Below, in pieces: positions 1-64,000 of a stretch of 64,000 bases of DNA. The notes under the pieces were generated by a model. That model was not told where the DNA came from, did not search any database, and worked only from the letters and a program-made list of their open reading frames with translations. The translations under genes were made by a program, and so were the position numbers. Positions within the stretch are counted from its first letter, which is position 1. Every line of letters starts with the position of its first letter. This stretch comes from Centroscyllium fabricii (lineage: Eukaryota): contig JBNRSN020000089.1 of NCBI GenBank assembly GCA_051313645.2, positions 2,542,001-2,606,000 of the forward strand, in the 5' to 3' direction.

Positions 1-239
1 GTACATCAGACAATGTCCATCTGTGTACAATACATCAGAAAATGCCCATCTGGGAACAATACATAAGACATTATACATCTGTGTACAATACATCAGACAT
101 TATCCATCTGTGTGCAATACATCAGAAAATGTCCATCTGTGAACAATAGATAAGACATTATGCATCTGTGTACAATACATCAGACATTATGCATCTGTGA
201 ACAATCCATCAGACCATATCCATCTGTGTACAATACATC

Positions 240-33300: not shown

Positions 33301-35135
33301 ACAATACATAAGACATTATCCATCAGTGTACAATACATCAGACATTATCTACCTGTGAGCAATACATCAGACAATATCCATCTGTGTACAATACATCAGA
33401 CAAATGTCCATCTGTGTACAATACATCAGACAATATCCATCTGTGTAAAATACATCAGACAATGTCCATCTGTGTCCAATACATCAGACAATATCCATCT
33501 GTGAACAATACATCAGACAACAACCATCTGTGTACAATACATCAGACAATATCCATCTGTGTACAATACATCACTAAATGTCCATCTGTGTACAATAAAT
33601 CAGGCAATATCCATCTGCGTACAATACACCAGACATGGTCCATCTGTGAACAATACATCAGTCCTTATCCATCTGTGTACAAACCATCAGACAACATCCA
33701 TCTGTGTACAATACATCAGAGAATGTCCGTCTGTGTACAATATATCAGACAATATCCATCTGTGTACATTACATCAGACAATGTCAATCTGTGAACAATA
33801 CATCAGACAATGTCCATCTGTGTACAATATATCAGACAATGTCCATCTGTGTACAATACATCAGACAATATGCATCTGTGTGCAATATATCAGACAATGT
33901 TTATCTGTGTACAATACATCAGACAATTTCCATCTGTGAACAATACATCAGACAATTTCCATCTGTGTACAATACATCAGATAATGTCCATCTGTGCACA
34001 ATACTTCAGACAATGTCCATCTGTGAACAATGCATCAGACAATGTTCATCTATGTACAATACATCAGACATTGCCCATCTGTGTACAATATATCAGACAT
34101 TATCCATCTGTGTACAATACATCAGAAAATGTCCATCTGTATACAATGCATCAGACAATATCCATCTGTGAGCAATACATCAGACAATACCCATCGTGTA
34201 GAAAACATCAGGCATTGTCAATCTGTGTACAATACATCAGACAATATCCATCTGTGTACAATACATCAGACATTGTCCTTCTGCGTACAATACATCAGAC
34301 AATGTCCATCGGTGAACAATTCATCAGACAATGTCCATCTGTGTACAATACATCAGACATTGTCCATCTGTGTACAATACATCAGACATTGTCAAACTGT
34401 GTACAATACATCAGATATTGTCCATCTGTGTACAATACATCAGAAAATATCCATCTGTGTACAATACATCCGACAATGTCCATCTGTGAACAATATATCA
34501 GACAATGTCCATCTTTGAACAATACATCAGACAATGTCCATCTGTGTACAATACATCAGACAATGTCCATATGTGTACAATAGGTCAGACAATATCCATC
34601 TGTGAACAATACATCAGACAATGTCCATCTGTGTACAATACATCAGAAAATGTCCATCTGTGAACAATCCATTAGACAATATCCATCTTTGTACAGTACA
34701 TCAGACAAAGTCAATGTGTGTACAATACATCAGACAATGTCCATCTGTGAACAAAACATCAGACAATATCCATCTCTGAAAAATACATCAGAGGATGTCA
34801 ATCTGTGTACAATACATCAGACAATATCCATCTGTGTACAATATATCAGACATTATCCATCTGTATACAATTCATCAGACATTATCCATCTGTGTACAAT
34901 ACATCAGAAAATATCCATCTCTGAACAATACATCAGACAATGTCCATCTGTGTACAATACATCAGAGAATGTCCAACTGTGTACAATACTTAAGACAATG
35001 TCCATCTAGAGTGCAATACATCAGACAATGTCAATTTGTGTACAATACATCAGACATTATCCATCTGTGTACAATACATCAGACAATGTCCATCTGTGAA
35101 CAATAATTCAGACAATATCCATCTGTAACAGTACA
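24340..35135. repeat. Higher-order duplication, offset 6204/6262 bp (~24340-28930 recurs at ~30545-35135), with a partial third copy at offset 2783
   Basis: ORF pairs 24377/30581, 24678/30882, 26861/33065, 27606/33810 and 28591/34795 (6204); 25692/31954 and 26455/32717 (6262); 26455/29238 and 26861/29644 (2783). TCTAGA landmarks 25468/31672 and 28801/35005. Confidence 0.9.
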
Positions 35136-41100: not shown

Positions 41101-42019
41101 CAATACATCAGACAATGTCCATCTGTGATCAATACATCAGACAATGTCCATCTGTATACAATACATCAGACAATGTCCATCTGTGTACAGTACGTCAGAC
41201 AATGTCCATCAGTTTACAGTACATCAGACAATGTCCTTCTGTGTACAGTACATCAGACAATGTCCATCTGTGTACAATACATCAGACACTGTCCATCTGT
41301 GTACAATACATCAGAAAATGTCCATCTGTGAACAATATATCAGACAATATCTATCTGTGTACAATACATCAGACAATGTCCATCTGTACAATACATCAGA
41401 CAATGTCCATCTGTGTACAATACATCAGACATTATCCATCTGTGTACAATACATCAGACAATGTCCATCTGTGAACAATATATCAGACAATACGCATCTG
41501 TGAACAATGCATCAGACAATGTTCATCTGTGTACAATACATCAGACAATATCCATCTGTGTACAATACATCAGACAATATCCATCTGTGTTCAGTACATC
41601 AGACAATGTACATCTGTGAACAATATATCAGACAATATCCATCTGTGTACAATAAATCAGACAATGTCCATCTGTGAACAATACATCAGACAATGTCCAT
41701 TTGTGTACAATACATGAGACAATGTCCATCTGTACAATATATCAGACAATGTCCATCTGAGTACAATACATCAGACATTATCCATCTGTGTACAATACAT
41801 CAGACAATGTCCATCTGTGAACAATAAATCAGACAATATCCATCTGTAAACAATACATCAGACAATGTCCATCTGTGTACAATACATCAGACAATATCCA
41901 TCTGTGTACAAAAGTTCGAACAATATCCATCTGTGTACAGTATATCAGACAATGTGCATCTGTGTACAACACATCAGACAATATCCATCTGTGTACAATA
42001 CATCAGACAATGTCCATCT

Positions 42020-45000
42020 GTGATCAATACATCAGACAATGTCCATCTGTGTACAATACATCAGACAATGTCCATCTGTGTACAGTACGTCAGACAATGT
42101 CCATCTGTTTACAGTACATCAGGCAATGTCCTTCTGTGTACAGTACATCAGACAATGTCCATCTGTGTACAATACATCAGACACTGTCCATCTGTGTACA
42201 ATACATCAGAAAATGTCCATCTGTGAACAATACATCAGACAATATCTATCTGTGTACTATACATCAGACAATGTCCATCTGTACAATACATCAGACAATG
42301 TCCATCTGTGTACAATACATCAGACATTATCCATCTGTGTACAATACATCAGACAATGTCCATCTGTGAACAATATATCAGACAATACGAATCTGTGAAC
42401 AATATATCAGACAATGTTCATCTGTGTACAATACATCAGACAATATCCATCTGTGTACAATACATCAGACAATATCCATCTGTGTACAGTACATCAGACA
42501 ATGTACATCTGTGAACAATATATCAGACAATATCCATCTGTGTACAATACATCAGACAATGTCCACCTGTGAACAATACATCAGACAATGTCCATCTGTG
42601 TACAATACATCAGACAATGTCCATCTGTACAATATATCAGACAATGTCCATTTGTGTACAATTCATCAGACATTATCCATCTGTGTACAATTCATCAGAC
42701 AATGTCCATCTGTGAACAATACATCAGATAATATCCATCTGTGAACAATACACCAAACAATGTCCATCTGTGTACAATACATCAGACAATATCCATCTGT
42801 GTACAATACATCAGACAATATTCATCTGTGTACAGTACATCAGACAAAGTCCATCTGTGTACAGTACATCAGACAATGTCCTTCTGTGTACAGTATATCA
42901 GACAATGTCCATCTGTGTACAATACATCAGACTCTGTCCATCTGTGTACAATACATCAGAAAATGTCCATCTGTGAACAATACATCAGACAATATCCATC
43001 TGTGTACAATACATCAGACAATGTCCATCTGTACAATACATCAGACAATGTCCATCTGTGTACAATACATCAGACATTATCCATCTGTGTACAATACATC
43101 AGACCATGTCGATCTGTGAACAATACGTCAGACAATATCCATCTGTGAACAATACATCAGACAATGTCCATCTGTGTACAATACATCAGACAATATCCAT
43201 CTGTGTACAATACATCAGACAATATCCATCTGAGTACAGTACATCAGACAATGTCCATCTGTGTACAGTACATCAGACAATGTCCTTCTGTGTACAGTAT
43301 TTCAGACAATGTCCATCTGTGTACAATACATCAGACTCTCTCCATCTGTGTACAACACATCAGAAAATGTACATCTGTGAACAATACATCAGACAATATC
43401 CATCTGTGAACAATACATCAGAAAATGTCCATCTGTGCACAATACATAAGACATTATCAATCTGTGAACAATACATCCGACATTATCTATCTGTGTACAA
43501 TACATCAGACAATATCCATCTGTGAACAATACATCAAACAATAACCATCTGTGTACAATACATCAGACAATATCCATTTGTGTACAATACATCAGAAAAT
43601 GTCCAATTGTGTACAATACATCAGACAATATCCATCTGTGTACAATACTTCAGACATTATCCATCTTTGAACAATACATCAGACATTATCCATCTGTGTA
43701 CAATACATCAGATATGGTCCATCTGTGAACAATACATCAGACATTATCCATCTGTATACAAAACATCAGAAAATATCCAACTGTGTACTATATATCAGAC
43801 AATGTCCATTTGTGTACAATACGTCAGACAATATCCATCTGTGTACAATACATCAGACAATGTCCATCTGTGTACAATATATCAGACAATGTCCATCTGT
43901 GAACAATACATCAGACAATATCCATCTGTGAACAATACATCAGACAATATCCATCTGTGTAAAATACATCAGACAATGTCCATCTGTACAATACATCAGA
44001 CAATGTCCATCTGTGTACAATACATCAGACATTATCCATCTGTGTACAATACATAAGGCAATGTCCATCTGTGAACAGTAAATCAGAAAATATCCATCTG
44101 TGAACAATACATCAGACAATGTCCATCTGTGTACAATACATCAGTCAATATCCACCTGTTTACAATACATCAGACAATATCCATCTGTATACAGTATATC
44201 AGACAATGTCCATCTGTGTACAATATATCAGGCACTATCCATCTGTGTATAATACATCAGACAATGTCAATCTGTGAACAATACATCAGACATTGTCCAT
44301 CTGTGTACAATACATCAGACAATGTCCATCTGTGTACAGTACATCAGACAATGTCCATCTGTGCACAGAACATCAGACAATGTATTTCTGTGTACAGTAC
44401 ATCAGACAATGTCCATCTGTGTACAATACATCAGACAATGTCCATCTGTGTGCAATATATCGGACAATGTCCATCTGTGAACAATACTTCAGACAATATC
44501 TATCTGTGAACAATACATCAGACAATATCCATCTGTGTACAATACATCAGACAATGTCCACCTGTACAATACATCAGACAATATCCATCTGTGAACTATA
44601 CATCAGACAATGTCCATCTGTGAACAATACATCAGACAATATCCATCTGTGTACAATACATCAGGCAATATCCATCTGTATACAGTATATCAGACAATGT
44701 CCATCTGTGTACATTACATCAGATAATATCCATCTGTGTACAATACATCAGACAATGTCCATCTGTGAACAATACACCAGACAATGTCCATCTGTGTACA
44801 ATACATCAGACAATGTCCATCTGTACAATATATCAGACAATGTCCATCTGAGTACAATACATCAGACATTATCCATCTGTGTACAATAAATCAGACAATG
44901 TCCATCTGTGAACAATACATCAGATAATATCCATCTGTGAACAATACATCAGACAATGTCCATCTGTGTACAATACATCAGACCATGTCGATCTGTGAAC

Positions 45001-48000
45001 AATACGTCAGACAATATCCATCTGTGAACAATACATCAGACAATGTCCATCTGTGTACAATACATCAGACAATGTCCATCTGTGTACAATACATCAGACA
45101 ATGTCCATCTGTGTACAGTACGTCAGACAATGTCCATCTGTTTACAGTACATCAGGCAATGTCCTTCTGTGTACAGTACATCAGACAATGTCCATCTGTG
45201 TACAATACATCAGACACTGTCCATCTGTGTACAATACATCAGAAAATGTCCATCTGTGAACAATACATCAGACAATATCTATCTGTGTACTATACATCAG
45301 ACAATGTCCATCTGTACAATACATCAGACAATGTCCATCTGTGTACAATACATCAGACATTATCCATCTGTGTACAATACATCAGACAATGTCCATCTGT
45401 GAACAATATATCAGACAATACGAATCTGTGAACAATATATCAGACAATGTTCATCTGTGTACAATACATCAGACAATATCCATCTGTGTACAATACATCA
45501 GACAATATCCATCTGTGTACAGTACATCAGACAATGTACATCTGTGAACAATATATCAGACAATATCCATCTGTGTACAATACATCAGACAATGTCCACC
45601 TCTGAACAATTCATCAGACAATGTCCATCTGTGTACAATACATCAGACAATGTCCATCTGTACAATATATCAGACAATGTCCATTTGTGTACAATACATC
45701 AGACATTATCCATCTGTGTACAATTCATCAGACAATGTCCATCTGTGAACAATACATCAGATAATATCAATCTGTGAACAATACACCAAACAATGTCCAT
45801 CTGTGTACAATACATCAGACAATATCCATCTGTGTACAATACATCAGACAATATTCATCTGTGTACAGTACATCAGACAAAGTCCATCTGTGTACAGTAC
45901 ATCAGACAATGTCCTTCTGTGTACAGTATATCAGACAATGTCCATCTGTGTACAATACATCAGACTCTGTCCATCTGTGTACAATACATCAGAAAATGTC
46001 CATCTGTGAACAATACATCAGACAATATCCATCTGTGTACAATACATCAGACAATGTCCATCTGTACAATACATCAGACAATGTCCATCTGTGTACAATA
46101 CATCAGACATTATCCATCTGTGTACAATACATCAGACCATGTCGATCTGTGAACAATACGTCAGACAATATCCATCTGTGAACAATATTTCAGACAATGT
46201 CCATCTGTGTACAATACATCAGACAATATCCATCTGTGTACAATACATCAGACAATATCCATCTGTGTACAGTACATCAGACAATGTCCATCTGTGTACA
46301 GTACATCAGAAAATGTCCTTCTGTGTACAGTATTTCAGACAATGTCCATCTGTGTACAATACATCAGACTCTGTCCATCTGTGTACAACACATCAGAAAA
46401 TGTTCATCTGTGAACAATACATCAGACAATATCCATCTGTGAACAATACATCAGAAAATGTCCATCTGTGCACAATACATAAGACATTATCAATCTGTGT
46501 ACAATATATCCGACATTATCTATCTGTGTACAATACATCAGACAATATCCATCTGTGAACAATACATCAAACAATAACCATCTGTGTACAATACATCAGA
46601 CAATATCCATTTGTGTACAATACATCAGAAAATGTCCAATTGTGTACAATACATCAGACAATATCCATCTGTGTACAATACATCAGACATTATCCATCTG
46701 TGAACAATACATCAGACATTATCCATCTGTGTACAATACATCAGATATGGTCCATCTGTGAACAATACATCAGACATTATCCATCTGTATACAAAACATC
46801 AGAAAATATCCAACTGTGTACTATATATCAGACAATGTCCATTTGTGTACAATACGTCAGACAATATCCATCTGTGTACAATACATCAGACAATGTCCAT
46901 CTGTGTACAATATATCAGACAATGTCCATCTGTGAACAATACATCAGACAATATCCATCTGTGAACAATACATCAGACAATATCCATCTGTGTACAATAC
47001 ATCAGACAATGTCCATCTGTACAATACATCAGACAATGTCCATCTGTGTACAATACATCAGACATTATCCATCTGTGTACAATACATAAGGCAATGTCCA
47101 TCTGTGAACAGTAAATCAGAAAATATCCATCTGTGAACAATACATCAGACAATGTCCATCTGTGTACAATACATCAGTCAATATCCACCTGTTTACAATA
47201 CATCAGACAATATCCATCTGTATACAGTATATCAGACAATGTCCATCTGTGTACAATATATCAGGCACTATCCATCTGTGTATAATACATCAGACAATGT
47301 CAATCTGTGAACAATACATCAGACATTGTCCATCTGTGTACAATACATCAGACAATGTCCATCTGTGTACAGTACATCAGACAATGTCCATCTGTGCACA
47401 GAACATCAGACAATGTATTTCTGTGTACAGTACATCAGACAATGTCCATCTGTGTACATTACATCAGACAATGTCCATCTGTGTGCAATATATCAGACAA
47501 TGTCCATCTGTGAACAATACTTCAGACAATATCCATCTGTGAACAATACATCAGACAATATCCATCTGTGTACAATACATCAGACAATGTCCATCTGTAC
47601 AATACATCAGACAATATCCATCTGTGAACTATACATCAGACAATGTCCATCTGTGAACAATACATCAGACAATATCCATCTGTGTACAATACATCAGGCA
47701 ATATCCATCTGTATACAGTATATCAGACAATGTCCATCTGTGTACATTACATCAGATAATATCCATCTGTGTACAATACATCAGACAATGTCCATCTGTG
47801 AACAATACACCAGACAATGTCCATCTGTGTACAATACATCAGACAATGTCCATCTGTACAATATATCAGACAATGTCCATCTGAGTACAATACATCAGAC
47901 ATTATCCATCTGTGTACAATAAATCAGACAATGTCCATCTGTGAACAATACATCAGATAATATCCATCTGTGAACAATACATCAGACAATGTCCAACTGT

Positions 48001-48100
48001 GTACAATACATCAGACCATGTCGATCTGTGAACAATACGTCAGACAATATCCATCTGTGAACAATACATCAGACAATGTCCATCTGTGTACAATACATCA
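42020..48100. repeat. Tandem duplication of a 3033-bp satellite block
   Basis: ORF pairs 42308/45341, 42741/45774, 43522/46555, 44129/47162, 44293/47326 and 44937/47970 all have offset 3033. Ends approximate. Confidence 0.92.
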
Positions 48101-49870
48101 GACAATATCCATCTGTGTACAATACATCAGACAATATCCATCTGTGTACAGTACATCGGACAATGTCCATCTGTGTACAGTACATCAGACAATGTCCTTC
48201 TGTGTACAGTATTTCAGACAATGTCCATCTATGTACAATACATCAGACTCTGTCCATCTGTGTACAATACATCAGAAAATGTTCATCTGTGAACAATACA
48301 TCAGACAATATCCATCTGTGAACAATACATCAGAAAATGTCCATCTGTGCACAATACATAAGACATTATCAATCTGTGTACAATACATCCGACATTATCT
48401 ATCTGTGTACAATACATCAGATAATATCCATCTGTGAACAATATATCAAACAATAACCATCTGTGTACAATACATCAGACAATATCCATTTGTGTACAAT
48501 ACATCAGAAAATGTCCAATTGTGTACAATACATCAGACAATATCCATCTGTGTACAATACATCAGACATTATCCATCTGTGAACAATATATCAGACATTA
48601 TCCATCTGTGTACAATACATCAGATATGGTCCATCTGTGAACAATACATCAGACATTATCCATCTGTATACAAAACATCAGAAAATATCCAACTGTGTAC
48701 TATATATCAGACAATGTCCATTTGTGTACAATACGTCAGACAATATCCATCTGTGTACAATACATCAGACAATGTCCATCTGTGTACAATATATCAGACA
48801 ATGTCCATCTGTGAACAATACATCAGACAATATCCATCTGTGAATAATACATCAGACAATATCCATCTGTGTACAATACATCAGACAATGTCCATCTGTA
48901 CAATACATCAGACAATGTCCATCTGTGTACAATACATCAGACATTATCCATCTGTGTACAATACATAAGGCAATGTCCATCTGTGAACAGTAAATCAGAA
49001 AATATCCATCTGTGAACAATACATCAGACAATGTCCATCTGTGTACAATACATCAGTCAATATCCACCTGTTTACAATACATCAGACAATATCCATCTGT
49101 ATACAGTATATCAGACAATGTCCATCTGTGTACAATATATCAGGCACCATCCATCTGTGTATAATACATCAGACAATGTCAATCTGTGAACAATACATCA
49201 GACATTGTCCATCTGTGTACAATACATCAGACAATGTCCATCTGTGTACAGTACATCAGACAATGTCCATCTGTGCACAGAACATCAGACAATGTATTTC
49301 TGTGTACAGTACATCAGACAATGTCCATCTGTGTACAATACATCAGACAATGTCCATCTGTGTGCAATATATCAGACAATGTCCATCTGTGAACAATACT
49401 TCAGACAATATCCATCTGTGAACAATACATCAGACAATATCCATCTGTGTACAATACATCAGAAAATGTCCATCTGAACAATACATCAGACAATATCCAT
49501 CTGTGAACTATACATCAGACAATGTCCATCTGTGAACAATACATCAGACAATATCCATCTGTGTACAATACATCAGGCAATATCCATCTGTATACAGTAT
49601 ATCAGACAATGTCCATCTGTGTACATTACATCAGATAATATCCATCTGTGTACAATACATCAGACAATGTCCATCTGTGAACAATACACCAGACAATGTC
49701 CATCTGTGTACAATACATCAGACAATGTCCATCTGTACAATATATCAGACAATGTCCATCTGAGTACAATACATCAGACATTATCCATCTGTGTACAATA
49801 AATCAGACAATGTCCATCTGTGAACAATACATCAGATAATATACATCTGTGAACAATACATCAGACAATG
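46120..49870. repeat. Tandem duplication of an 1879-bp satellite block, overlapping the 3033-bp duplication
   Basis: ORF pairs 46197/48076, 46555/48434, 46613/48492, 47162/49041 and 47307/49186 have offset 1879. Confidence 0.9.
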
Positions 49871-50289
49871 TCCATCTGTGTACAATACATCAGACAATAT
49901 CCATCTGTGTACAATACATCAGACAATATCCATCTGTGTACAGTACATCAGACAATGTCCATCTGTGTACAGTACATCAGACAATGTCCTTCGGTGTACA
50001 GTATATCAGACAATGTCCATCTGTGTACAATACATCAGACTCTGTCCATCTGTGTACAATACATCAGAAAATGTCCATCTGTGAACAATAAATCAGACAA
50101 TATCCATCTTTGTACAATACATCAGACAGTGTCCATTTGTACAATACATCAGACAATGTCCATCTGTGTAGAATACATCAGACATTATCCATCTGTGTAC
50201 AATACATCAGGCAATGTCCATCTGTGAACAATAAACCAGACAATATCCATCTGTAAACAATACATCAGACAATGTCCATCTGTGTACAA

Positions 50290-52130
50290 TACATCAGACA
50301 ATATCCATCTGTGTACAGTATATCAGACAATGTGCATCTGTGTACAATACATCAGACAATATCCATCTGTGTACAATACATCAGACAATGTCCATCTGTG
50401 ATCAATACATCAGACAATGTCCATCTGTGCACAATACATCAGACAATGTCCATCTGTGTACAGTACGTCAGACAATGTCCATCTGTTTACAGTACATCAG
50501 GCAATGTCCTTCTGTGTACAGTACATCAGACAATGTCTATCTGTGTACAATACATCAGACACTGTCCATCTGTGTACAATACATCAGAAAATTTCCATCT
50601 GTGAACAATACATCAGACAATATCTATCTGTGAACAATACATCAGACAATGTCCATCTGTACAATACATCAGACAATGTCCATCTGTGTACAATACATCA
50701 GACATTATCCATTTGTGTACAATACATCAGACAATGTCCAACTGTGAACAATATATCAGACAATACGAATCTGTGAACAATACATCAGACAATGTTCATC
50801 TGTGTACAATACATCAGACAATATCCATCTGTGTACAATACATCAGACAATATCCATCTGTGTACAGTACATCAGACAATGTAAATCTGTGAACAATATA
50901 TCAGACAATATCCATCTGTGTACAATACATCAGACAATGTCCATCTGTGAACAAAACATCAGACAATGTCCATCTGTGTACAATACATCAGACAATGTCC
51001 ATTTGTACAATATATCAGACAATGTCCATTTGTGTACAATACATCAGACATTATCCATTTGTGTACAATACATCAGACAATGTCCATCTGTGAACAATAC
51101 ATCAGATAATATCCATCTGTGAACAATACACCAAACAATGTCCATCTGTGTACAATACATCAGACAATATCCATCTGTGAACAATACATCAGACAATATT
51201 CATCTGTGTACAGTACATCAGACAAAGTCCATCTGTGTACAGTACATCAGACAATGTCCTTCTGTGTACAGTATATCAGACAATGTCCATCTGTGTACAA
51301 TACATCAGACTCTGTCCATCTGTGTACAATACATCAGAAAATGTCCATCTGTGAACAATACATCAGACAATATCCATCTGTGTACAATACATCAGACAAT
51401 GTCCATCTGTACAATACATCAGACAATGTCCATCTGTGTACAATACATCAGACATTATCCATCTGTGTACAATACATCAGACCATGTCGATCTGTGAACA
51501 ATACGTCAGACAATATCCATCTGTGAACAATACATCAGACAATGTCCATCTGTGTACAATACATCAGACAATATCCATCTGTGTACAATACATCAGACAA
51601 TATCCATCTGTGTACAGTACATCAGACAATGTCCATCTGTGTACAGTACATCAGACAATGTCCTTATGTGTACAGTATTTCAGACAATGTCCATCTGTGT
51701 ACAATACATCAGACTCTGTCCATCTGTGTACAATACATCAGAAAATGTTCATCTGTGAACAATACATCAGACAATATCCATCTGTGAACAATACATCAGA
51801 AAATGTCCATCTGTGCACAATACATAAGACATTATCAATCTGTGTACAATACATCCGACATTATCTATCTGTGTACAATACATCAGACAATATCCATCTG
51901 TGAACAATACATCAAACAATAACCATCTGTGTACAATACATCAGACAATATCCATTTGTGTACAATACATCAGAAAATGTCCAACTGTGTACAATACATC
52001 AGACAATATCCATCTGTGTACAATACATCAGACATTATCCATCTGTGAACAATACATCAGACATTATCCATCTGTGTACAATACATCAGATATGGTCCAT
52101 CTGTGAACAATACATCAGACATTATCCATC
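50290..52130. repeat. Further copy of the ~41910-43750 satellite block (offset 8378)
   Basis: ORF pairs 42039/50417, 42308/50686, 42741/51119, 43058/51436 and 43522/51900; shared rare variants TACGAATC and CACCAAAC. Confidence 0.87.
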
Positions 52131-54652
52131 TGTGTACAATACATCAGACCATGTCCATCTGTGAACAATACATCAGACAATATCCATCTGTGAACAATAC
52201 ATCAGACAATGTCCATCTGTGTACAATACATCAGAAAATATCCATCTGTGTACAATACATCAGACAATATGCATGTGTGTACAGTACATCAGACAATGAC
52301 CATCTGTGTACAATACACCAGACAATATCCATCTGTGTACAATACCTCAGACAATGTCCATCTGTGAACAATACATAAGACATTATCAATCTGTGTACAA
52401 TACATCAGACATTATCCATCTGCGTACAATACATCAGACAATATCCATCTGTGAATAATACATCAGAAAATGTCCGTCTGTGTACAATACATCAGACATT
52501 ATCCATCTGTGAACAATACATCAGACAATAACCATCTGTGTACAATACATCAGACAATATCCATCGGTGTACAATATATCAGAAAATGTCCATCTGTGTA
52601 CAATACATCAGACAATATCCATATGTGTACAGTACATCAGACAATGTCCATCTGTGTACAATACATCAGACACTGTCCATCTGTGTACAATATATCAGAC
52701 AATGTCCATCTGTGAACAATACATCGGACAACATCCATCTGTGAACAATACATCAGACAATATCCAGCTGTGTACAATACATCAGACAATGTCCATCTGT
52801 ACAATACATCAGACAATGTCCATCTGTGTACAATACATCAGACATTATCCATCTGTGTACAATACATAAGACAATATACATCTGTGAACAATAAATCAGA
52901 CAATATCCATCTGTGAACAATACATCAGACCATGTCCAACTGTGTACAATACATCAGGCAATATCAATCTGTGTACAATACATCAGACAATATCCATCTG
53001 TATACAGTATATCAGACAATGTCCATCTGTGTACAATACTTCAGACAATATCCATCTGTGTACAATATATCAGACAATATCCATCTGTGAACAATACATC
53101 AGACAATGTCCATCTGTGTACAATACATCAGACAATGTCCATCTGTACAATACATCAGACAATGTCCATCTGTGTACAATACATCAGACATTATCCATCT
53201 GTGTACAATACATCAGACAATGTCCATCTGTGAACAATACATCAGATAATATCCATCTGTGAACAATACATCAGACAATTTCCATCTGTGTACAATACAT
53301 CAGACAATATCCATCTGTGTACAATACATCAGACAAATTTCATCTGTGTACCGTACATCAGACAATGTCCATCTGTGTACAGTACATCAGAAAATGTCCT
53401 TCTGTGTACAATACATCAGACTCTGTCCATCTGTGTACAATATATCAGAAAATGTCCATCTGTGAACAATACATGAGACAATATCCATCTGTGTACAATA
53501 CATCAGACAATGTTCATCTGTACAATACATCAGACAATGTCCATCTGTGTAAAATACATCAGACATTATCCATCTGTGTACAATACATCAGACCATGTCC
53601 ATCTGTGAACAATACATCAGGCAATATCCATCTGTGAACAATGCAGCAGACAATGTCCATCTGTGTACAATACATCAGAAAATATCCATCTGTGTACAAT
53701 ACATCAGACAATATCCATGTGTGTACAGTACATCAGACAATGACCATCTGTGTACAATACATCAGACAATATCCATCTGTGTACAATACATCAGACAATG
53801 TCCATCTGTGAACAATACATAAGACATTATCAATCTGTGTACAATACATCAGACATTATCCATCTGTGTACAATATATTAGACAATATCCATCTGTGAAT
53901 AATACATCAGTAAATGTCCATCTGTGTACAATACATCAGACATTATCCATCTGTGAACAATACATCAGACAATAACCAACTGTGTAACATACATCAGAAA
54001 TGTCCATCTGTGTACAATACATCAGACAATATCCATCTGTGTACAATACATCAGAAATTATCCATCTGTGAACAATACATCAGACATTATCCATCTGTGT
54101 AAAATACATCAGACATGGTCCATCTGTGAACAATACATCAGACATTATCCATCCTTGTACAATACATCAGACAATATCCATCTGTGTACAATCCATCAGA
54201 CAATATCCATCTGTGTACAAAACATCAGAGAATGTCAATCTGTGTACAAAACATCAGACAATGTCCATCTGTGAACAATACATCAGACAATATCCATCTG
54301 TGAACCATATATCAGACAATATCCATCTGTGAACAATACATCAGACAATGTCCATCTGTACAATGCATCAGACAATGTCCATCTGTGTACAATACATCAG
54401 ACATTATCCATCTGTGTACACTACATCAGACAATGTCCATCTGTGAACAATAAATCAGACAATGTCCATCTGTACAATACATCAGACAATGTCCATCTGT
54501 GTACAATACATCAGAAATTATCCATCTGTGTACACTACATCAGACAATGTCCATCTGTGAACAATAAATCAGACAATATCCATCTGTGAACAATAATTCA
54601 GACAATGTCCATCTGTGAACAATACATCAGACAATATCCATCTGTGTACAAT

Positions 54653-57600
54653 ACATCAGACAATGTTCATCTGTACAATACATCAGACAATGTCCATCTT
54701 TGTACAATACATCAGACATTATCCATCTGTGTACAATACTTCAGACCATTTCCATCTGTGAACAATTATTCAGGCAATATCCATCTGTGAACAATACCTC
54801 AGACAATGTCCATCTGTGTACAATACATCAGAAAATATCCATCTGTGTACAATACATCAGACAATATCCATGTGTGTACAGTACATCAGACAATGACCAT
54901 CTGTGTACAATACATCAGACAATATCCATCTGTGTACAATACATCAGACAATGTCCATCTGTGAACAATACATAAGACATTATCAATCTGTGTACAATAT
55001 ATCAGACATTATCCATCTGTGTACAATACATCAGACAATATCCATCTGTGAATAATACATCAGAAAATATCCATCTGTGTACAATACATCAGACATTATC
55101 CATCTGTGAACAATACATCAGACAATAACCATCTGTGTAACATACATCAGAAATGTCCATCTGTGTACAATACATCAGACAATATCCATCTGTGTACAAT
55201 ACATCAGAAATTATCCATCTGTGAACAATACATCAGACATTATCCATCTGTGTAAAATACATCAGACATGGTCCATCTGTGAACAATACATCAGACATTA
55301 TCCATCCTTGTACAATACATCAGACAATATCCATCTGTGTACAATACATCAGACCATGTCCATCTGTGTACAATCCATCAGACAATATCCATCTGTGTAC
55401 AAAACATCAGAGAATGTCCATCTGTGTACAAAACATCAGACAATGTCAATCTGTGAACAATACATCAGACAATATCCATCTGTGAACAATATATCAGACA
55501 ATATCCATCTGTGTACAATACATCAGACAATGTCCATTTGAACAATACATCAGACAATTTCCATCTGTGTACAATACATCAGACAAATTTCATCTGTGTA
55601 CCGTACATCAGACAATGTCCATCTGTGTACAGTACATCAGAAAATGTCCTTCTGTGTACAATACATCAGACTCTGTCCATCTGTGTACAATATATCAGAA
55701 AATGTCCATCTGTGAACAATACATGAGACAATATCCATCTGTGTACAATACATCAGACAATGTTCATCTGTACAATACATCAGACAATGTCCATCTGTGT
55801 ACAATACATCAGACATTATCCATCTGTGTACAATACATCAGACCATGTCCATCTGTGAACAATACATCAGGCAATATCCATCTGTGAACAATGCAGCAGA
55901 CAATGTCCATCTGTGTACAATACATCAGAAAATATCCATCTGTGTACAATACATCAGACAATATCCATGTGTGTACAGTGCATCAGACAATGACCATCTG
56001 TGTACAATACATCAGACAATATCCATCTGTGTACAATACATCAGACAATGTCCATCTGTGAACAATACATAAGACATTATCAATCTGTGTACAATACATC
56101 AGACATTATCCATCTGTGTACAATATATTAGACAATATCCATCTGTGAATAATACATCAGAAAATGTCCATCTGTGTACAATACAACAGACATTATCCAT
56201 CTGTGAACAATACATCAGACAATAAACAACTGTGTAACATACATCAGAAATGTCCATCTGTGTACAATACATCAGACAATATCCATCTGTGTACAATACA
56301 TCAGAAATTATCCATCTGTGAACAATACATCAGACATTATCCATCTGTGTAATATACATCAGACATGGTCCATCTGTGAACAATACATCAGACATTATCC
56401 ATCCTTGTACAATACATCAGACAATATCCATCTGTGTACAATACATCAGACCATGTCCATCTGTGTACAATCCATCAGACAATATCCATCTGTGTACAAA
56501 ACATCAGAGAATGTCCATCTGTGTACAAAACATCCGACAATGTCCATCTGTGAACAATACATCAGACAATATCCATCTGTGAACCATATATCAGACAATA
56601 TCCATCTGTGTACAATACATCAGACAATGTCCATCTGTACAATGCATCAGACAATGTCCATCTGTGTACAATACATCAGACATTATCCATCTGTGTACAC
56701 TACATCAGAAAATGTCCATCTGTGAACAATAAATCAGACAATGTCCATCTGTACAATACATCAGACAATGTCCATCTGTGTACAATACATCAGAAATTAT
56801 CCATCTGTGTACACTACATCAGACAATGTCCATCTGTGATCAATAAATCAGACAATATCCATCTGTGAACAATAATTCAGACAATGTCCATCTGTGAACA
56901 ATACATCAGACAATATCCATCTGTGTACAATACATCAGACAATGTTCAACTGTACAATACATCAGACAATGTCCATCTGTGTACAATACATCAGACATTA
57001 TCCATCTGTGTACAATACATCAGACCATTTCCATCTGTGAACAATACATCAGGCAATATCCATCTGTGAACAATACCTCAGACAATGTCCATCTGTGTAC
57101 AATACATCAGAAAATATCCATCTGTGTACAATACATCAGACAATATCCATGTGTGTACAGTACATCAGACAATGACCATCTGTGTACAATACATCAGACA
57201 ATATCCATCTGTGTACAATACATCAGACAATGTCCATCTGTGAACAATACATAAGACATTATCAATCTGTGTACAATATATCAGACATTATCCATCTGTG
57301 TACAATACATCAGACAATATCCATCTGTGAATAATACATCAGAAAATATCCATCTGTGTACAATACATCAGACATTATCCATCTGTGAACAATACATCAG
57401 ACAATAACCATCTGTGTAACATACATCAGACAATGTCCATCTGTGTACAATACATCAGACAATATCCATCTGTGTACAATACATCAGAAATTATCCATCT
57501 GTGAACAATACATCAGACATTATCCATCTGTGTAAAATACATCAGACATGGTCCATCTGTGAACAATACGTCAGACATTATCCATTCTTGTACAATACAT

Positions 57601-60600
57601 CAGACAATATCCATCTGTGTACAATACATCAGACCATGTCCATCTGTGTACAATCCATCAGACAATATCCATCTGTGTACAAAACATCAGAGAATGTCCA
57701 TCTGTGTACAAAACATCAGACAATGTTCATCTGTACAATACATCAGACAATGTCCATCTGTGTACAATACATCAGACATTATCCATCTGTGTACAATACT
57801 TCAGACCATTTCCATCTGTGAACAATTATTCAGGCAATATCCATCTGTGAACAATACCTCAGACAATGTCCATCTGTGTACAATACATCAGAAAATATCC
57901 ATCTGTGTACAATACATCAGACAATATCCATGTGTGTACAGTACATCAGACAATGACCATCTGTGTACAATACATCAGACAATATCCATCTGTGTACAAT
58001 ACATCAGACAATGTCCATCTGTGAACAATACATAAGACATTATCAATCTGTGTACAATATATCAGACATTATCCATCTGTGTACAATACATCAGACAATA
58101 TCCATCTGTGAATAATACATCAGAAAATATCCATCTGTGTACAATACATCAGACATTATCCATCTGTGAACAATACATCAGACAATAACCATCTGTGTAA
58201 CATACATCAGAATTGTCCATCTGTGTACAATACATCAGACAATATCCATCTGTGTACAATACATCAGAAATTATCCATCTGTGAACAATACATCAGACAT
58301 TATACATCTGTGTAAAATACATCAGACATGGTCCATCTGTGAACAATACATCAGACATTATCCATCCTTGTACAATACATCAGACAATATCCATCTGTGT
58401 ACAATACATCAGACCATGTCCATCTGTGTACAATCCATCAGACAATATCCATCTGTGTACAAAACATCAGAGAATGTCCATCTGTGTACAAAACATCAGA
58501 CAATGTCCATCTGTGAACAATACATCAGACAATATCCATCTGTGAACAATATATCAGACAATATCCATCTGTGTACAATACATCAGACAATGTCCATTTG
58601 AACAATACATCAGACAATTTCCATCTGTGTACAATACATCAGACAAATTTCATCTGTGTACCGTACATCAGACAATGTCCATCTGTGTACAGTACATCAG
58701 AAAATGTCCTTCTGTGTACAATACATCAGACTCTGTCCATCTGTGTACAATATATCAGAAAATGTCCATCTGTGAACAATACATGAGACAATATCCATCT
58801 GTGTACAATACATCAGACAATGTTCATCTGTACAATACATCAGGCAATGTCCATCTGTGTACAATACATTAGACATTATCCATCTGTGTACAATACATCA
58901 GACCATGTCCATCTGTGAACAATACATCAGGCAATATCCATCTGTGAACAATGCAGCAGACAATGTCCATCTGTGTACAATACATCAGAAAATATCCATC
59001 TGTGTACAATACATCAGACAATATCCATGTGTGTACAGTGCATCAGACAATGACCATCTGTGTACAATACATCAGACAATATCCATCTGTGTACAATACA
59101 TCATACAATGTCCATCTGTGAACAATACATAAGACATTATCAATCTGTGTACAATACATCAGACATTATCCATCTGTGTACAATATATTAGACAATATCC
59201 ATCTGTGAATAATACATCAGAAAATGTCCATCTGTGTACAATACAACAGACATTATCCATCTGTGAACAATACATCAGACAATAACCAACTGTGTAACAT
59301 ACATCAGAAATGTCCATCTGTGTACAATACATCAGACAATATCCATCTGTGTACAATACATCAGAAATTATCCATCTGTGAACAATACATCAGACATTAT
59401 CCATCTGTGTAAAATACATCAGACATGGTCCATCTGTGAACAATACATCAGACATTATCCATCCTTGTACAATACATCAGACAATATCCATCTGTGTACA
59501 ATACATCAGACCATGTCCATCTGTGTACAATCCATCAGACAATATCCATCTGTGTACAAAACATCAGAGAATGTCCATCTGTGTACAAAACATCCGACAA
59601 TGTCCATCTGTGAACAATACATCAGACAATATCCATCTGTGAACCATATATCAGACAATATCCATCTGTGTACAATACATCAGACAATGTCCATCTGTAC
59701 AATGCATCAGACAATGTCCATCTGTGTACAATATATCAGACATTATCCATCTGTGTACACTACATCAGACAATGTCCATCTGTGAACAATAAATCAGACA
59801 ATGTCCATCTGTACAATACATCAGACAATGTCCATCTGTGTACAATACATCAGAAATTATCCATCTGTGTACACTACATCAGACAATGTCCATCTGTGAT
59901 CAATAAATCAGACAATATCCATCTGTGAACAATAATTCAGACAATGTCCATCTGTGAACAATACATCAGACAATATCCATCTGTGTACAATACATCAGAC
60001 AATGTTCATCTGTACAATACATCAGACAATGTCCATCTGTGTACAATACATCAGACATTATCCATCTGTGTACAATACATCAGACCATTTCCATCTGTGA
60101 ACAATACATCAGGCAATATCCATCTGTGAACAATACCTCAGACAATGTCCATCTGTGTACAATACATCAGAAAATATCCATCTGTGTACAATACATCAGA
60201 CAATATCCATGTGTGTACAGTACATCAGACAATGACCATCTGTGTACAATACATCAGAGAATATCCATCTGTGTACAATACATCAGACAATGTCCATCTG
60301 TGAACAATACATAAGACATTATCAATCTGTGTACAATATATCAGACATTATCCATCTGTGTACAATACATCAGACAATATCCATCTGTGAATAATACATC
60401 AGAAAATATCCATCTGTGTACAATACATCAGACATTATCCATCTGTGAACAATACATCAGACAATAACCATCTGTGTAACATACATCAGACAATGTCCAT
60501 CTGTGTACAATACATCAGACAATATCCATCTGTGTACAATACATCAGAAATTATCCATCTGTGAACAATACATCAGACATTATCCATCTGTGTAAAATAC

Positions 60601-60786
60601 ATCAGACATGGTCCATCTGTGAACAATACATCAGACATTATCCATCCTTGTACAATACATCAGACAATATCCATCTGTGTACAATACATCAGACCATGTC
60701 CATCTGTGTACAATCCATCAGACAATATCCATCTGTGTACAAAACATCAGAGAATGTCCATCTGTGTACAAAACATCAGACAATGT
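54653..60786. repeat. Tandem duplication of a 3060-bp satellite block built from ~0.8-1.2 kb subunits
   Basis: The lines starting 54661 and 57721 align in register. ORF pairs 55221/58281, 55511/58571, 56164/59224, 56979/60039 and 57501/60561 have offset 3060. Subunit starts at 54068, 55221, 56318, 57501, 58281, 59378 and 60561. Confidence 0.93.
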
Positions 60787-61172
60787 CCATCTGTGAACAA
60801 TACATCAGACAATATCCATCTGTGAACAATATATCAGACAATATCCATCTGTGTACAATACATCAGACAATGTCCATCTGTATGTAACCTGGGTCTGAAA
60901 CCCAGAGTCAGGGAGAATCTCCCTAAAGGGTTAAAAATCTAGGGATCCAGTGGTCTGAGGTCAGTTGACCTCTTCGGTGCCAGTTTGTCTGGAAGTTTGA
61001 TCACAAGGGGGTTGTTGACCAGGTGTGAGTATGGACAATGTTTCAGACAGGCTGGGCTGCCATGGAAACCAGCACTCGGCTCCGGCCAGTCTGGAAAAAC
61101 AAGGGGTCTTGCAGGTGGGGGCTGTGTGATTGCTTTGCGATAGGCTGGCTAAAAGTGGGGTGAGTTACTGGA

Positions 61173-61196
61173 GGGTGGAGCCAGGACAGGATAAAT
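61173..61196 (+). promoter_or_regulatory. Candidate LTR core promoter (GT/CACCC box plus TATA-like GATAAA element)
   Basis: GGGTGGAGCC at 61173, followed by GATAAAT at 61190 (GATAAAA in LTR2 at 63147), about 300 bp into the LTR. Motif-level inference only. Confidence 0.35.
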
Positions 61197-61336
61197 GGCT
61201 AGACACGCCTAGAGACAGGATTATTAAGATTGAGCTGGAGGAAGATAGAGCGCAGGAGGAAGAGAGAAGATTGAGCAGGAGGTTAGATGGAGAGAAGATC
61301 CAGGAAAGATCCAGAGAAGCCACGAGAGAGGCAGTT

Positions 61337-62082
61337 CCAAGAGCCGTCGTTATCTCCCTGGGGATGAGGAGGCTGTAGTGTACGGTCCTCATTGTCGAGC
61401 CCTGTTTGGACAGTCGTGAGTAGTGACTACTGAGAGAAGGGCTTGGGGAAGACGAGTTTGCAGGAAGCAGAGGGTGGAGAAGTGTGTTTGATGCCCACTG
61501 CTGGAAGATGCTGGAGGCTTTCGTGTTAAAAGGACTGAGAGACAGTCCCAAGAGCCGTCGTTGTTTCCCTTGGGATGAGTAGGCTGTAGTGTACGGTACT
61601 CATTGCCGAGCCCTATTCGGACAGTCGTGAGTAGCACTTACTGAGAGAAGGGCTTGGGGAAGACGAGGTTGCAGGAAGCAGAGGGTGGAGAAGTGTGTGC
61701 GACGCCCACTGCTGGAGGATGCTGGAGGCTTTCATGTTAAAAGGACTGAGAGACAGTCCCAAGAGCCGTCGTTGTTTCCCTTGGGATGAGTAGGCTGTAG
61801 TGTACGGTACTCATTGTCAAGCCCTGTTCGGACAGTCGTGAGTGGCGGCTACTGAGAGAAGGGCTTGGGGAAGACGAGGTTGCAGGAAACAGAGGGTGGA
61901 GAGCTGTGTGCGACGCCCACTGCTGGAAGATGCTGGAAGCTTTCGTGTTAAAAGGACAGAGGCAGATCCAAGAGCCGTCGTTGTCTCCCTTGAGATGAGG
62001 AGACTGTAGTGTACGGTCCTCATTTTCAAGCCCTATTCGGACAGTCGTGAGTAATAACTTCTGAGAAAAGGGCTTGGGGAAC
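61337..62082 (+). repeat. ~3.5 tandem copies of a 209-211-bp unit inside the 5' LTR
   Basis: The anchor CCAAGAGCCGTCGTT starts at 61337, 61548, 61759 and 61968; the fourth copy stops after GGGCTTGGGGAA. Confidence 0.97.
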
Positions 62083-62086
62083 AAGG

Positions 62087-62371
62087 TGTAAGGGTGCTAA
62101 AGTGGATGCCTTGCCATTGTAAATTGCTGATTGAAATGTGTTCTGTAAGGGTGCTAAAGCGAATGCCTTGCCATTGTAAATTGCTGATTGAAATGTGTTC
62201 TGTAAGGGTGCTAAAGCGAGTGCCTTGCCATTGTAAATTGCTGATTGAAATGTGTTCTGTAAGGGTGCTAAAGCGAGTGCCTTGCCAGTGTAAATTGCTG
62301 ATTGAAATGTGTTCTGGAAGGGTGCTAGAGCGAGTGCCTTGCCATTATAAAGTTCTGATTGAAGTGTGTTC
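62087..62371 (+). repeat. Five tandem copies of a 57-bp minisatellite inside the LTR
   Basis: Unit TGTAAGGGTGCTAAAGCGAGTGCCTTGCCATTGTAAATTGCTGATTGAAATGTGTTC starts at 62087, 62144, 62201, 62258 and 62315; the outer copies are the most diverged. Confidence 0.97.
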
Positions 62372-62519
62372 TTGGGAGTGGTTGTGAGCTGAATGAATGT
62401 GTAAATGATTTGTTGTATGACATTAATGCTGCTTTCTATTTGTGTATGCAGTTGCTAGTTGTTTAACACTGTTTGTATTTAAACTCTATCTCCCATCACT
62501 GTTATTAAAGTTTGTAAAT

Positions 62520-62525
62520 AATAAA
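62520..62525 (+). terminator. Candidate LTR polyadenylation signal
   Basis: AATAAA (with ATTAAA at 62504) in the AT-rich segment near the LTR 3' end, followed by T/GT-rich sequence. Confidence 0.55.
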
Positions 62526-62695
62526 TTTTGTCTCTGATTCATCTCTCTCAAGTTAAAAGGGTTACATTTGGGTGGAGGTCACAGAATTCTACACGTGGGG
62601 TACGTTCAGAACCTACGGGGTAATTGGTATTAACCTAACCCCCCCATTCTCAGTAAAGGAGAGGGGGGGGGGGCAATCGTAAAAAGGGTTACATT

Positions 62696-62715
62696 TGGGG
62701 GCTCGTTTCCGGGAT
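62696..62715 (+). other. Primer-binding site complementary to the 3' end of tRNA-Pro, with a 2-nt insertion
   Basis: TGGGGGCTCGTTTCCGGGAT versus the canonical tRNA-Pro PBS TGGGGGCTCGTCCGGGAT. It sits in the classic CA-TT-TGG spacing after the LTR end. Confidence 0.92.
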
Positions 62716-62772
62716 ACTGTGACTTCCAGTTTCATACCCTAGTGGAGTGAACCCATTGTTGCCGAGAGAGAG

Positions 62773-62802
62773 ATGGACGTGAGCACGGTTACTTAGTGGT
62801 GT
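62773..62802 (+). pseudogene. Possible remnant of the first 10 codons of a Gypsy gag (PNMA/Ma-type N-terminus)
   Basis: First ATG after the PBS, in a good Kozak context (GAGATGG). It reads MDVSTVT*WC, and an early WC motif recalls the N-terminus of PNMA-like Gag proteins. Very short, so weak. Confidence 0.4.
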
Positions 62803-62829
62803 AGTCATGAGGACATGACTAGGTTTGGT

Positions 62830-62839
62830 AAGGGGGGAG
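62830..62839 (+). other. Polypurine tract
   Basis: AAGGGGGGAG directly abuts the TG start of the second LTR. Confidence 0.9.
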
Positions 62840-64000
62840 TGTAACCTGGGTCTGAAACCCAGAGTCAGGGAGAATCTCCCTAAAGGGTTAAAAATCTAGG
62901 GATCCAGTGGTCTGAGGTCAGGTGACCTCTTCGGTGCCAGTTTGTCTGGAAGTTTGATCACAAGGGGGTTGTTGACCAGGTGTGAGTATGGACAATGTTT
63001 CAGACAGGCTGGGCTGCCATGGAAACCAGCACTCGGCTCCGGCCAGTCTGGAAAAACAAGGGGTCTTGCAGGTGGGGGCTGTGTGATTGCTTTGCGATAG
63101 GCTGGCTAAAAGTGGGGTGAGTTACTGGAGGGTGGAGCCAGGACAGGATAAAAGGCTAGACACGCCTAGAGACAGGATTATTAAGATTGAGCTGGAGGAA
63201 GATAGAGCGCAGGAGGAAGAGAGAAGATTGAGCAGGAGGTTAGATGGAGAGAAGATCCGGGAAAGATCCAGAGAAGCCACGAGAGAGGCAGTTCCAAGAG
63301 CCGTCGTTATCTCCCTGGGGATGAGGAGGCTGTAGTGTACGGTCCTCATTGTCGAGCCCTGTTTGGACAGTCGTGAGTAGTGACTACTGAGAGAAGGGCT
63401 TGGGGAAGACGAGGTTGCAGGAAGCACAGGGTGGAGAAGTGTGTTTGATGCCCACTGCTGGAAGATGCTGGAGGCTTTCGTGTTAAAAGGACTGAGAGAC
63501 AGTCCCAAGAACCGTCGTTGTTTCCCTTGGGATGAGTAGGCTGTAGTGTACGGTACTCATTGCCGAGCCCTATTCGGACAGTCGTGAGTAGCACTTACTG
63601 AGAGAAGGGCTTGGGGAAGACGAGGTTGCAGGAAGCAGAGGGTGGAGAAGTGTGTGCGACGCCCACTGCTGGAGGATGCTGGAGGCTTTCGTGTTAAAAG
63701 GACTGAGAGACAGTCCCAAGAGCCGTCGTTGTTTCCCTTGGGATGAGTAGGCTGTAGTGTACGGTACTCATTGTCAAGCCCTGTTCGGACAGTCGTGAGT
63801 GGCGGCTACTGAGAGAAGGGCTTGGGGAAGACGAGGTTGCAGGAAACAGAGGGTGGAGAGCTGTGTGCGACGCCCACTGCTGGAAGATGCTGGAAGCTTT
63901 CGTGTTAAAAGGACAGAGGCAGATCCAAGAGCCGTCGTTGTCTCCCTTGAGATGAGGAGACTGTAGTGTACGGTCCTCATTGTCAAGCCCTATTCGGACA
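62840..64000 (+). repeat. 3' (second) LTR, partial
   Basis: Copy of 60883-62043 with 8 substitutions and no indel found by eye over 1161 bp (~99.3%). Preceded directly by the polypurine tract. Confidence 0.95.
63294..64000 (+). repeat. Same 209-211-bp tandem units inside the second LTR (truncated)
   Basis: Copy of 61337-62043 at offset 1957. Confidence 0.96.

Follow-up and report, generated by a model that had tools for sequence, protein, structure and literature searches.

The element at the end of the window (the whole 64,000 nt of Centroscyllium fabricii DNA that we analyzed) is very probably a copy of a numerous non-coding element that derives by deletion from a Ty3/Gypsy retrotransposon, and this parent also exists in full-length form in the genome. 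The LTR of the deleted element likely drives its transcription, and the RNA is then likely packaged together with the parental RNA and copied by the parental reverse transcriptase and integrase. The element is 3765 bp long and lies, like all features given coordinates here, on the forward strand. A 5' LTR of 1811 bp starting with TG and ending with CA (60883..62693) is followed by a core of 146 bp (62694..62839) and a 3' LTR of 1808 bp, of which the first 1161 bp are in the window (62840..64000) and which is complete past it, its final base being G000:C1477:2606647. The insertion target, outside the element, is a host satellite array at 1..60882 (TRF period of 29 bp, about 2103 copies, 86% matches), which continues for about 420 bp 3' of the element. 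The 4-bp target-site duplication TGTA stands at 60879..60882, and the same bases follow the 3' LTR (G000:C1477:2606648). These boundaries agree with the original prediction, made from the letters of this stretch, of an 1811-bp LTR, TT, a primer-binding site (PBS), a polypurine tract (PPT), and a second LTR. We also recovered its eight substitutions between the LTRs over the 1161 bp in the window; over the complete LTRs there are 13 in 1808 columns (0.72%). Ten of these 13 differences are transversions.

Approximately the first 335 bp of the LTR (60883..61217) are the predicted U3, which is conserved across the short (deleted) and long (undeleted) forms of the family. A putative TATA-like motif (61189..61198) has one base changed in the 5' LTR and is intact in the 3' LTR at 63146; within the searched interval, 66 of 86 LTRs of the short form and 13 of 29 of the long form have the exact motif. 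Further into the 5' LTR are a 211-bp tandem repeat (3.6 copies, 61326..62081) and a 57-bp tandem repeat (5 copies, 62087..62372). Candidate polyadenylation hexamers at 62504 and 62520 (62504..62525) may mark the end of R, and the first is at about -190 in all four LTRs among those listed. A sequence resembling the LTR end lies within the LTR at 62545..62566, 127 bp short of the actual end, and long elements have it too.

The core opens, after TT, with a PBS for tRNA-Pro (62696..62715). The assignment to tRNA-Pro holds, since the ungapped form of the site matches the ends of host tRNA-Pro genes, but the match in this copy is imperfect, with two extra bases after position 11. The PBS is imperfect in 794 of 1198 counted copies, and we assume that their priming would work as in the parallels from plants, mouse, and yeast. 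All coding sequence had been thought lost; there is indeed no capacity to encode transposition, but the start codon of the parental gag (62773) and its first codons remain (62773..62801), with a stop at codon 8 (62794-62796). Gag codon 10 is fused to the 3' end of pol at a junction with 2 bp of microhomology (62802..62803). The deletion, of 5067 bp relative to one long copy, took nearly all coding sequence and halts at the base of a pre-PPT hairpin (62802..62821), which is retained as predicted and comes from the untranslated 3' end of the parent; the PPT itself is at 62830..62839. The whole core does not fold more stably than its shuffles (z +1.44), and a 36-nt segment chosen around the hairpin has a z of -2.45, with 7 of 200 shuffles equally stable. 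The only open reading frames of at least 120 codons in the element are antisense frames within the LTRs. With TG...CA LTRs, a target duplication, a PBS, a PPT, and no coding capacity for transposition, the element counts among the non-autonomous LTR retrotransposons.

This copy belongs to a large family. The short junction has 894 exact matches genome-wide, on many contigs, and the long, undeleted junction has 437, with none for the control in either case. A separate target duplication flanks 74 of 76 sampled short copies and 26 of 28 sampled long ones, and targets of the pyrimidine-purine type are preferred. The LTRs to be catalogued number roughly 3500 in all. These are many independent insertions of one deleted form, as had been anticipated from copies sharing the internal junction but not flanks and duplications. 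The original prediction had itself named a one-off deletion at this locus, or the collapse of a full-length element during assembly, as grounds for rejecting it. This copy does lie in a satellite array that is hard to assemble, and the 10 transversions among its 13 LTR differences could also be taken to favor collapsed full-length elements, or a deletion that occurred once after insertion and was then multiplied by segmental duplication. Yet the flanks are different at every locus, the duplications stand exactly at the element ends, and the junctions are spread over many contigs; duplication and collapse are thus both refuted for the family and have next to no probability.

The family is young. 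LTR divergence has a median of 0.10% in the 76 sampled short copies, 25 of which have no LTR substitution at all, and the two LTRs are equal in length within 10 nt in 70 of the 76, yet widely different in length among copies. The recent insertion proposed earlier is therefore true of the family; this copy, at 0.72%, is among the older ones and older than most of those sampled. In public runs, contigs of X2, X4, and X6 span the short junction without differences, with fewer than 31 letters on at least one side, and X1 showed only long-form ends. Because of these short flanks, and because X2 and X4 are perhaps from the source sample, we do not count the X2, X4, and X6 contigs as support.

The Gypsy helper that had been postulated was found as full-length elements that share their LTR ends, leader, and 3' end with the short form. 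Their internal region of 5.2 kb has just two long sense frames and no env. In Pfam searches, gag matched PNMA_N, PNMA, and a zinc knuckle, and the two pol proteins scanned matched reverse transcriptase, RNase H, and integrase in Gypsy order, with no dUTPase match in these two. Both frames are open in 24 of 29 sampled long copies. Judged by these domains, the parent belongs to Ty3/Gypsy and its gag is of the PNMA type.

We propose a single origin of the junction, through a template jump during reverse transcription at the 2-bp microhomology. Alternatively, the short copies might be dead ends, with full-length elements repeatedly making an identical deletion at a hot spot. In both LTR trees the short copies are interspersed with long ones rather than grouped as a single clade (10 and 7 changes; FastTree alone), a pattern that recombination explains and that repeated origin could explain too, and all main PBS variants are common to both forms. 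However, variants beside the junction occur only in short copies: 71 of 96 short cores have the codon-8 stop and 82 of 96 have a 3' variant, neither of which was seen in any of 29 long copies. The 57-bp unit is likewise present in 2-5 copies in 31 of 36 short elements and single in all 29 long ones. Moreover, the microhomology is merely 2 bp, and the other deletions that we found (L099, L163, L181) are each of a different size. This largely refutes repeated deletion, which we regard as very improbable. A single origin is thus preferred. All 41 short cores among those listed are 144-147 bp long. Splicing was rejected as the origin of the junction: motifs resembling a donor and an acceptor adjoin the breakpoints, but four bases that splicing would remove are still there, and the exactly spliced form has no match.

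The LTRs of the short form are longer, with a median of 1482 bp (36 elements) versus 1236 bp in the long form (29 elements) and a minimum of 1146 bp among those sampled; as copies are related, the p value of 1e-10 for this difference overstates their independence. The 211-bp repeat marker is single in 28 of 29 long elements, and the median number of upstream ATGs in R-U5 is 15 in short and 5 in long elements. If transcription starts near LTR position +335, as we propose, R would be long and would contain the repeats. R-U5 would then be the 5' leader of the parental gag message, so that its growth might be tolerated in the non-coding form and not in the parent.

The two forms have also exchanged LTR segments. 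In 29 of 43 cases, tracts common to short and long LTRs stop between +304 and +335, although the sequence after about +335 is hypervariable (34 distinct 20-mers versus 7 before it, in 93 LTRs), so that alignment breaks would cluster there even without strand transfer. The U3 of L036, L039, and L046 is that of the long copy L159, identical over 316 bp. Conversely, L133 and L144 carry about 900 bp each of parent-type R-U5 (99.6% and 99.0% identity), which begins at parental position +341 but short-LTR position +411 in the first and at +337 but +380 in the second, and in L113 a parent-type LTR is flanked by two short cores. In a comparison of 66 short copies, the core goes more closely with U3 (Mantel r of 0.44 and 0.39) than with U5 (0.22 and 0.01), values that overstate independence for the same reason of relatedness. 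Sharing measured from the LTR 3' end gave no clear boundary, with 34 of 115 LTRs passing the anchor and 8 pairs. Exchange near the predicted transcription start points to particles shared by short and long forms. The first strand transfer may often switch between different co-packaged RNAs and sometimes land in the wrong register on a GA-rich module of similar sequence; this would yield both mosaics and longer LTRs.

The mosaics and arrays of this family could instead come from gene conversion or ectopic recombination at the DNA level, between genomic copies or cDNA circles. Three observations lean that way. The LTRs are unequal in 6 of 76 short copies, in three by about one 211-bp unit and in one by a 57-bp unit, which indicates change after insertion; L133 has two identical inner LTRs with a 6-bp join resembling a two-LTR circle junction; and papers on plants attribute tandem arrays to homologous recombination (10.1101/010850; PMC13570524). 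Against this, the two mosaic LTRs of an element differ little or not at all (0 differences in L108 and L113, 3 in L133), hence the mosaic is older than the last reverse transcription, and the breakpoints coincide with the predicted boundary of U3 and R. A host mRNA without introns at the same position requires, in addition, an RNA template. We therefore hold the DNA-level account to be unlikely and favor template switching in particles.

That host mRNA is IGF1. In one subfamily, to which this copy does not belong, each LTR carries spliced host IGF1 with an open frame of 112 codons just 3' of the predicted promoter, and we counted 127 such LTRs, solo LTRs included. The frame is unbroken, with a start codon, a signal peptide, and the whole mature hormone. 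Two host exon junctions are joined, and the insert lacks the host introns, which measure 911 and 23,679 bp; loss of introns is a feature that it has in common with LTR-mediated retrocopies. Possible stretches of similarity are visible at both ends of the insert. Four synonymous fixed differences and one non-synonymous one separate the LTR-borne IGF1 from the host gene, and the frame has a C-terminal tail that the LTR encodes. The message may have been captured through two switches of the proposed kind near the start of R, which would place it in both LTRs and let it survive in solo LTRs. Distinct changes in the frame after capture (3 synonymous, 9 non-synonymous) are as expected without selection. 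It is conceivable, though improbable, that more than 100 promoter-IGF1-polyA cassettes yield secreted IGF1, drive the division of host cells, and thereby favor spread of the element, persisting as solo LTRs. Such cassettes would resemble an oncogene-transducing retrovirus, but in a non-infectious retrotransposon, and they would outlive the element as solo LTRs. The subfamily shows how an entire secreted growth factor can be multiplied by means of a mobile promoter and retained once only a solo LTR is left. Expressed copies would add to the dosage of a growth-regulator gene, and unexpressed ones will still inflate IGF1 counts in the annotation of the genome.

The partners of non-autonomous families are seldom traced: 10 of 115 beet families were confidently assigned in PMC13570524, and 11 of 289 plant TRIM subfamilies in 10.1101/010850. 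The parent in this case is young and abundant, as is its parasite, and the two have visibly swapped parts. Hence, the pair delimits the smallest internal sequence required in cis (about 110 bp of leader plus 38 bp ahead of the LTR) and documents the growth of LTRs. LARDs have a long non-coding internal region, and the mouse element ETn also keeps a long one.

TRIMs are defined as under 1 kb (more widely 1.5 kb), with LTRs averaging 198 bp. They have two LTRs, a tiny non-coding core built from the 5' and 3' internal ends of the parent, a PBS, and a PPT, all as here; they depend on an autonomous partner, as this element likely does, and they too can form tandem arrays (Gao et al., 10.1101/010850). 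This element has the short core with PBS and PPT but is too large for a strict TRIM, with 3765 bp and 1.8-kb LTRs, and differs in having an abundant partner with which it exchanges sequence. It shares a 4-bp target duplication with the fish element Helenus/LTR-11_DR (Kojima, PMC10886601). ARAGORN found no tRNA gene in the LTR and the best Rfam match was a sub-threshold lncRNA (E 0.067), hence it is not Helenus or Cassandra; more generally, the tRNA- or 5S-derived LTR sequence required for Cassandra, Helenus, or Ajax (TRIMp3) is absent. LARDs exceed 4 kb (PMC13570524), compared with 3.77 kb and a 146-bp core here. The original prediction that the element fits neither class is thus right by size, but families of 1.5-4 kb, the "long-TRIMs", have already been reported in sugar beet (PMC13570524), so that fitting neither class does not by itself make a new one. 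As presented in that paper, these families are also non-coding, intermediate in size between TRIMs and LARDs, with long LTRs and comparatively short internal regions, and have tandem copies and template-switch chimeras. They are from a plant, whereas this element is from an animal; their long-LTR families have a ratio of up to 1.75, apparently length/(2 x LTR) from the worked example, and this element has 1.04.

In the mouse ETn/MusD pair (PMC7472051), as here, the non-coding element outnumbers its coding helper and most PBS copies mismatch the primer tRNA; these are endogenous retroviruses, whereas here the helper is Gypsy and the core is 146 bp. The domains of the parental gag resemble those of metaviruses with an RBD-capsid-nucleocapsid gag related to the PNMA ancestor, such as zebrafish Gypsy-12 (PMC10516033). 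Our search of mostly open literature, Repbase Reports excluded, found no animal family with kilobase LTRs and a core of about 150 bp, nor IGF1 captured in an LTR. The IGF1 subfamily resembles the LTR-mediated retrocopies of Tan et al. 2016 (PMC5131818) in its spliced partial host mRNA and its further amplification; those retrocopies are joined to the element at short similar stretches, a feature that the ends of the IGF1 insert may share. The retrocopies described there replace internal sequence between the LTRs, whereas the IGF1 cargo is inside the LTR, two per element. Neither non-autonomous LTR families nor gene capture mediated by LTRs is new in kind; the unusual part is the cargo within the LTR.

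As predicted, the window element consists of two LTRs around a 146-bp core: the 5' LTR spans 60883-62693 and the core 62694-62839, and the part of the second LTR inside the window differs from the first at 8 of 1161 positions. Once the sequence past the window (G000:C1477:2542001-2606000) is included, the second LTR runs to its full 1808 bp, TGTA is found on both sides of the element, and the full-length comparison of the LTRs gives 13 differences in 1808 positions (0.72%). Long and short forms alike have, 127 bp before the true LTR end, a sequence that resembles this end and runs into a G-rich stretch (62545-62566 in the window). The remainder of the window (1-60882) consists of 29-bp satellite repeats with long exact internal duplications, the strongest at an offset of 7042 bp and others at 3033 and 3060 bp. 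It stops around 420 bp past the element and is followed, just beyond the window, by a LINE (L031:6065-10000). The 5' end of this LINE holds tandem repeats of around 240 bp; its ORF1 is of the GDSL-esterase type, and its endonuclease ORF2 is broken.

The window copy is an ordinary member of its family. The 7.2-Gb host genome contains 894 exact matches to a 32-base pattern across the short junction and 437 to the identical 5' side with the undeleted continuation (reversed controls: 0 for each). The internal junction thus recurs at other loci, and 74 of the 76 sampled short copies have their own 4-bp target duplication, as do 26 of 28 long copies. A pattern at the LTR start has 3478 matches, leaving room for several hundred solo LTRs. 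Our sample comprised the 38 best matches to the window core, 15 loci picked for long or tandem structure, and, on contig C1, 40 short copies plus 20 long ones picked outside the list of perfect primer binding sites (PBS). Counts of target duplications and divergence leave out L047, L050, L107, L109, L125, and L150, together with L122, L128, and L132, whose LTR ends were not parsed. The median LTR-LTR difference is 0.10% in short copies and 0.09% in long ones, and 25 of the 76 short copies have LTR pairs without any substitution. The recent insertion put forward in the original prediction holds for the family; the window copy is among the older ones, since only L134 and L135 are more diverged in our sample. 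Across 100 insertion sites, the duplication prefers pyrimidine-purine alternation, with A or T at the third base beyond it (98/100 and 100/100 sites); the satellite unit contains a site of this type.

The family is a young, non-autonomous Gypsy family whose helper, expected from the short form, we could identify. On C1, 8 of the first 30 loci with a perfect PBS have a long internal region. Such copies have around 5.2 kb between the LTRs and carry gag (PNMA_N, PNMA, and zinc knuckle domains) and pol (RT, RNase H, and integrase), with both frames open in 24 of 29 sampled copies. This gag layout is like that of metaviruses related to PNMA genes, as described in parts of PMC10516033. The short core joins, at TA, the first ~108 bases of the parent's internal region to its last 38. 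Relative to the sampled locus L101, the deletion removed 5067 bp, cutting within gag codon 10 and, on the other side, at the pol stop codon of L101-type copies, where the pre-PPT hairpin begins. Splicing was rejected as the source of the junction, the exactly spliced form having 0 matches. Of 96 short cores, 71 have a stop at codon 8 and 82 a 3' core variant, versus none of 29 long copies for either. These short-only variants argue for a single self-propagating lineage.

We searched 87 short-form LTRs for their best near-identical tract in 29 long-form LTRs. Among the 5'-anchored tracts, 29 of 43 end at LTR positions +304 to +335, and 8 of the 27 others begin at parent +332 to +341. Anchoring at the 3' end instead yielded 8 usable pairs, in which no clear boundary stands out. 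In L133, L144, and L108, a parent-type R-U5 (99.0-99.6% identity) begins at parent +337 to +341 but lies 43 to 413 bases deeper in the short LTR. In L113, a parent-type LTR stands between two short cores, and its U3 matches the outer LTRs of the same locus. The short copies do not group as one clade in the FastTree phylogeny of either end of the LTR (10 and 7 changes). We read these patterns as strand transfer between co-packaged RNAs, which would occur at the predicted U3/R border and at times out of register; the copies behind these statistics are related, not independent. LTR positions 1-335 are conserved, with a TATA-like motif at +307, and hypervariable sequence starts around 25 bases past this motif; such a tract would anyway produce alignment breaks near the border without any strand transfer. 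The leader and 3' core variants track U3 more than U5 (66 short copies; 15 rows dropped). Besides the proposed strand transfer, recombination at the DNA level is clearly also at work, with unequal LTRs in 6 of 76 short copies and, in L133, a pair of inner LTRs separated by just 6 bp, much as they would be in a two-LTR circle. The tandem arrays (L108, L113, L231, L047 with L174, and L133) have matching outer LTRs and inner LTRs from other subfamilies, in the patterns A-B-A, A-B-C-A, and A-B-B-C-A.

Short-form LTRs have also grown. The first LTR has a median length of 1482 bp (1146-1950) in 36 short copies on C1 versus 1236 bp (1071-1351) in 29 long copies, and inner LTRs of tandem arrays reach 2703 bp. 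A 57-bp unit is single in 29/29 long copies and multiple in 31/36 short ones. The median number of ATGs in R-U5 is 15 (72 short LTRs) versus 5 (21 long LTRs), which fits, without proving it, a short form freed from having to translate gag. In Brachypodium, long LTRs and short internal regions favour the formation of solo LTRs, according to parts of PMC7497039.

In one subfamily of the short form, each LTR carries a spliced copy of a host gene. When 174 short-form LTRs were screened against long-form LTRs for unmatched stretches of at least 40 bases, 13 (7 loci) had one, every time the same 337 bp from +361 to +698. Its frame of 112 residues matches the insulin/IGF family, with human IGF1 as best match (E 1e-39), and comprises the whole mature peptide behind a hydrophobic leader (e.g., L046:2446-2802). 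The host has one IGF1 locus (G000:C1001:81986-57062, minus strand); the insert joins the last part of one exon to two others, without the introns of 911 and 23,679 bp, and the exact exon junction is found in 127 LTRs. The insert is absent from the window copy and from 29/29 first-sampled long copies. We examined 48 IGF1 loci, a sample skewed to close matches (16 identical to the query, 24 found via an exact 30-mer), comprising 30 short elements, 17 solo LTRs, and one full-length tandem. All 48 loci keep an open frame and its six disulfide cysteines. The ATG of the frame follows the TATA-like motif by 63-65 bases, without an upstream ATG in 46 of the 47 loci scored. These open frames may simply reflect the youth of the copies. 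Over codons 1-99, the fixed differences from host IGF1 comprise 4 synonymous changes and a single non-synonymous one; the p of 0.012 for this ratio is conditional on all having arisen on a neutral element branch, and the changes cannot be polarised. Later changes among copies (3 synonymous to 9 non-synonymous) fit the neutral expectation and give no sign of selection.

The proline PBS said to be kept is indeed present in the window copy (62696-62715), but with 2 extra bases; it is the ungapped form that complements the ends of host tRNA-Pro genes. Nine loci with the PBS-complement motif were scanned for tRNAs: four tRNA-Pro genes in total were called at the motif in 3 of them, a further locus was classed as tRNA-Arg, and nothing was called in the other five. 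Genome-wide, 404 PBS copies are ungapped, 604 have two extra bases, and 190 have one. Insertions of 1-3 bases after position 10-12 affect the majority of copies in both forms, and long copies share the variants of the short ones. The PBS thus seems to be passed on through element RNA instead of being renewed from the tRNA, like that of Ty1 and Ty3, where the primer tRNA is not the template for the PBS (parts of PMC5371799), so that gapped variants could persist. We infer that these are able to prime. In mouse ETn/MusD, too, a mismatched PBS is the common form (parts of PMC7472051).

In its way of working, the window element resembles a TRIM, but it is too large for that class, and it is not a LARD, so it fits neither, as originally predicted. 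Identity with Helenus/Cassandra was rejected. No matching report was found in the literature searched; Repbase or Dfam may already have a name for the family. In sugar beet, many non-autonomous families lie between TRIMs and LARDs (parts of PMC13570524), and these may include equally extreme LTR ratios; fish have TRIMs that form tandem arrays (parts of PMC10886601). Capture of host mRNA via LTR elements is established, with the cargo between the LTRs in the cases described in parts of PMC5131818. The added interest of the present family lies in its LTR mosaics and in LTRs that themselves bear a possibly expressed IGF1 insert.
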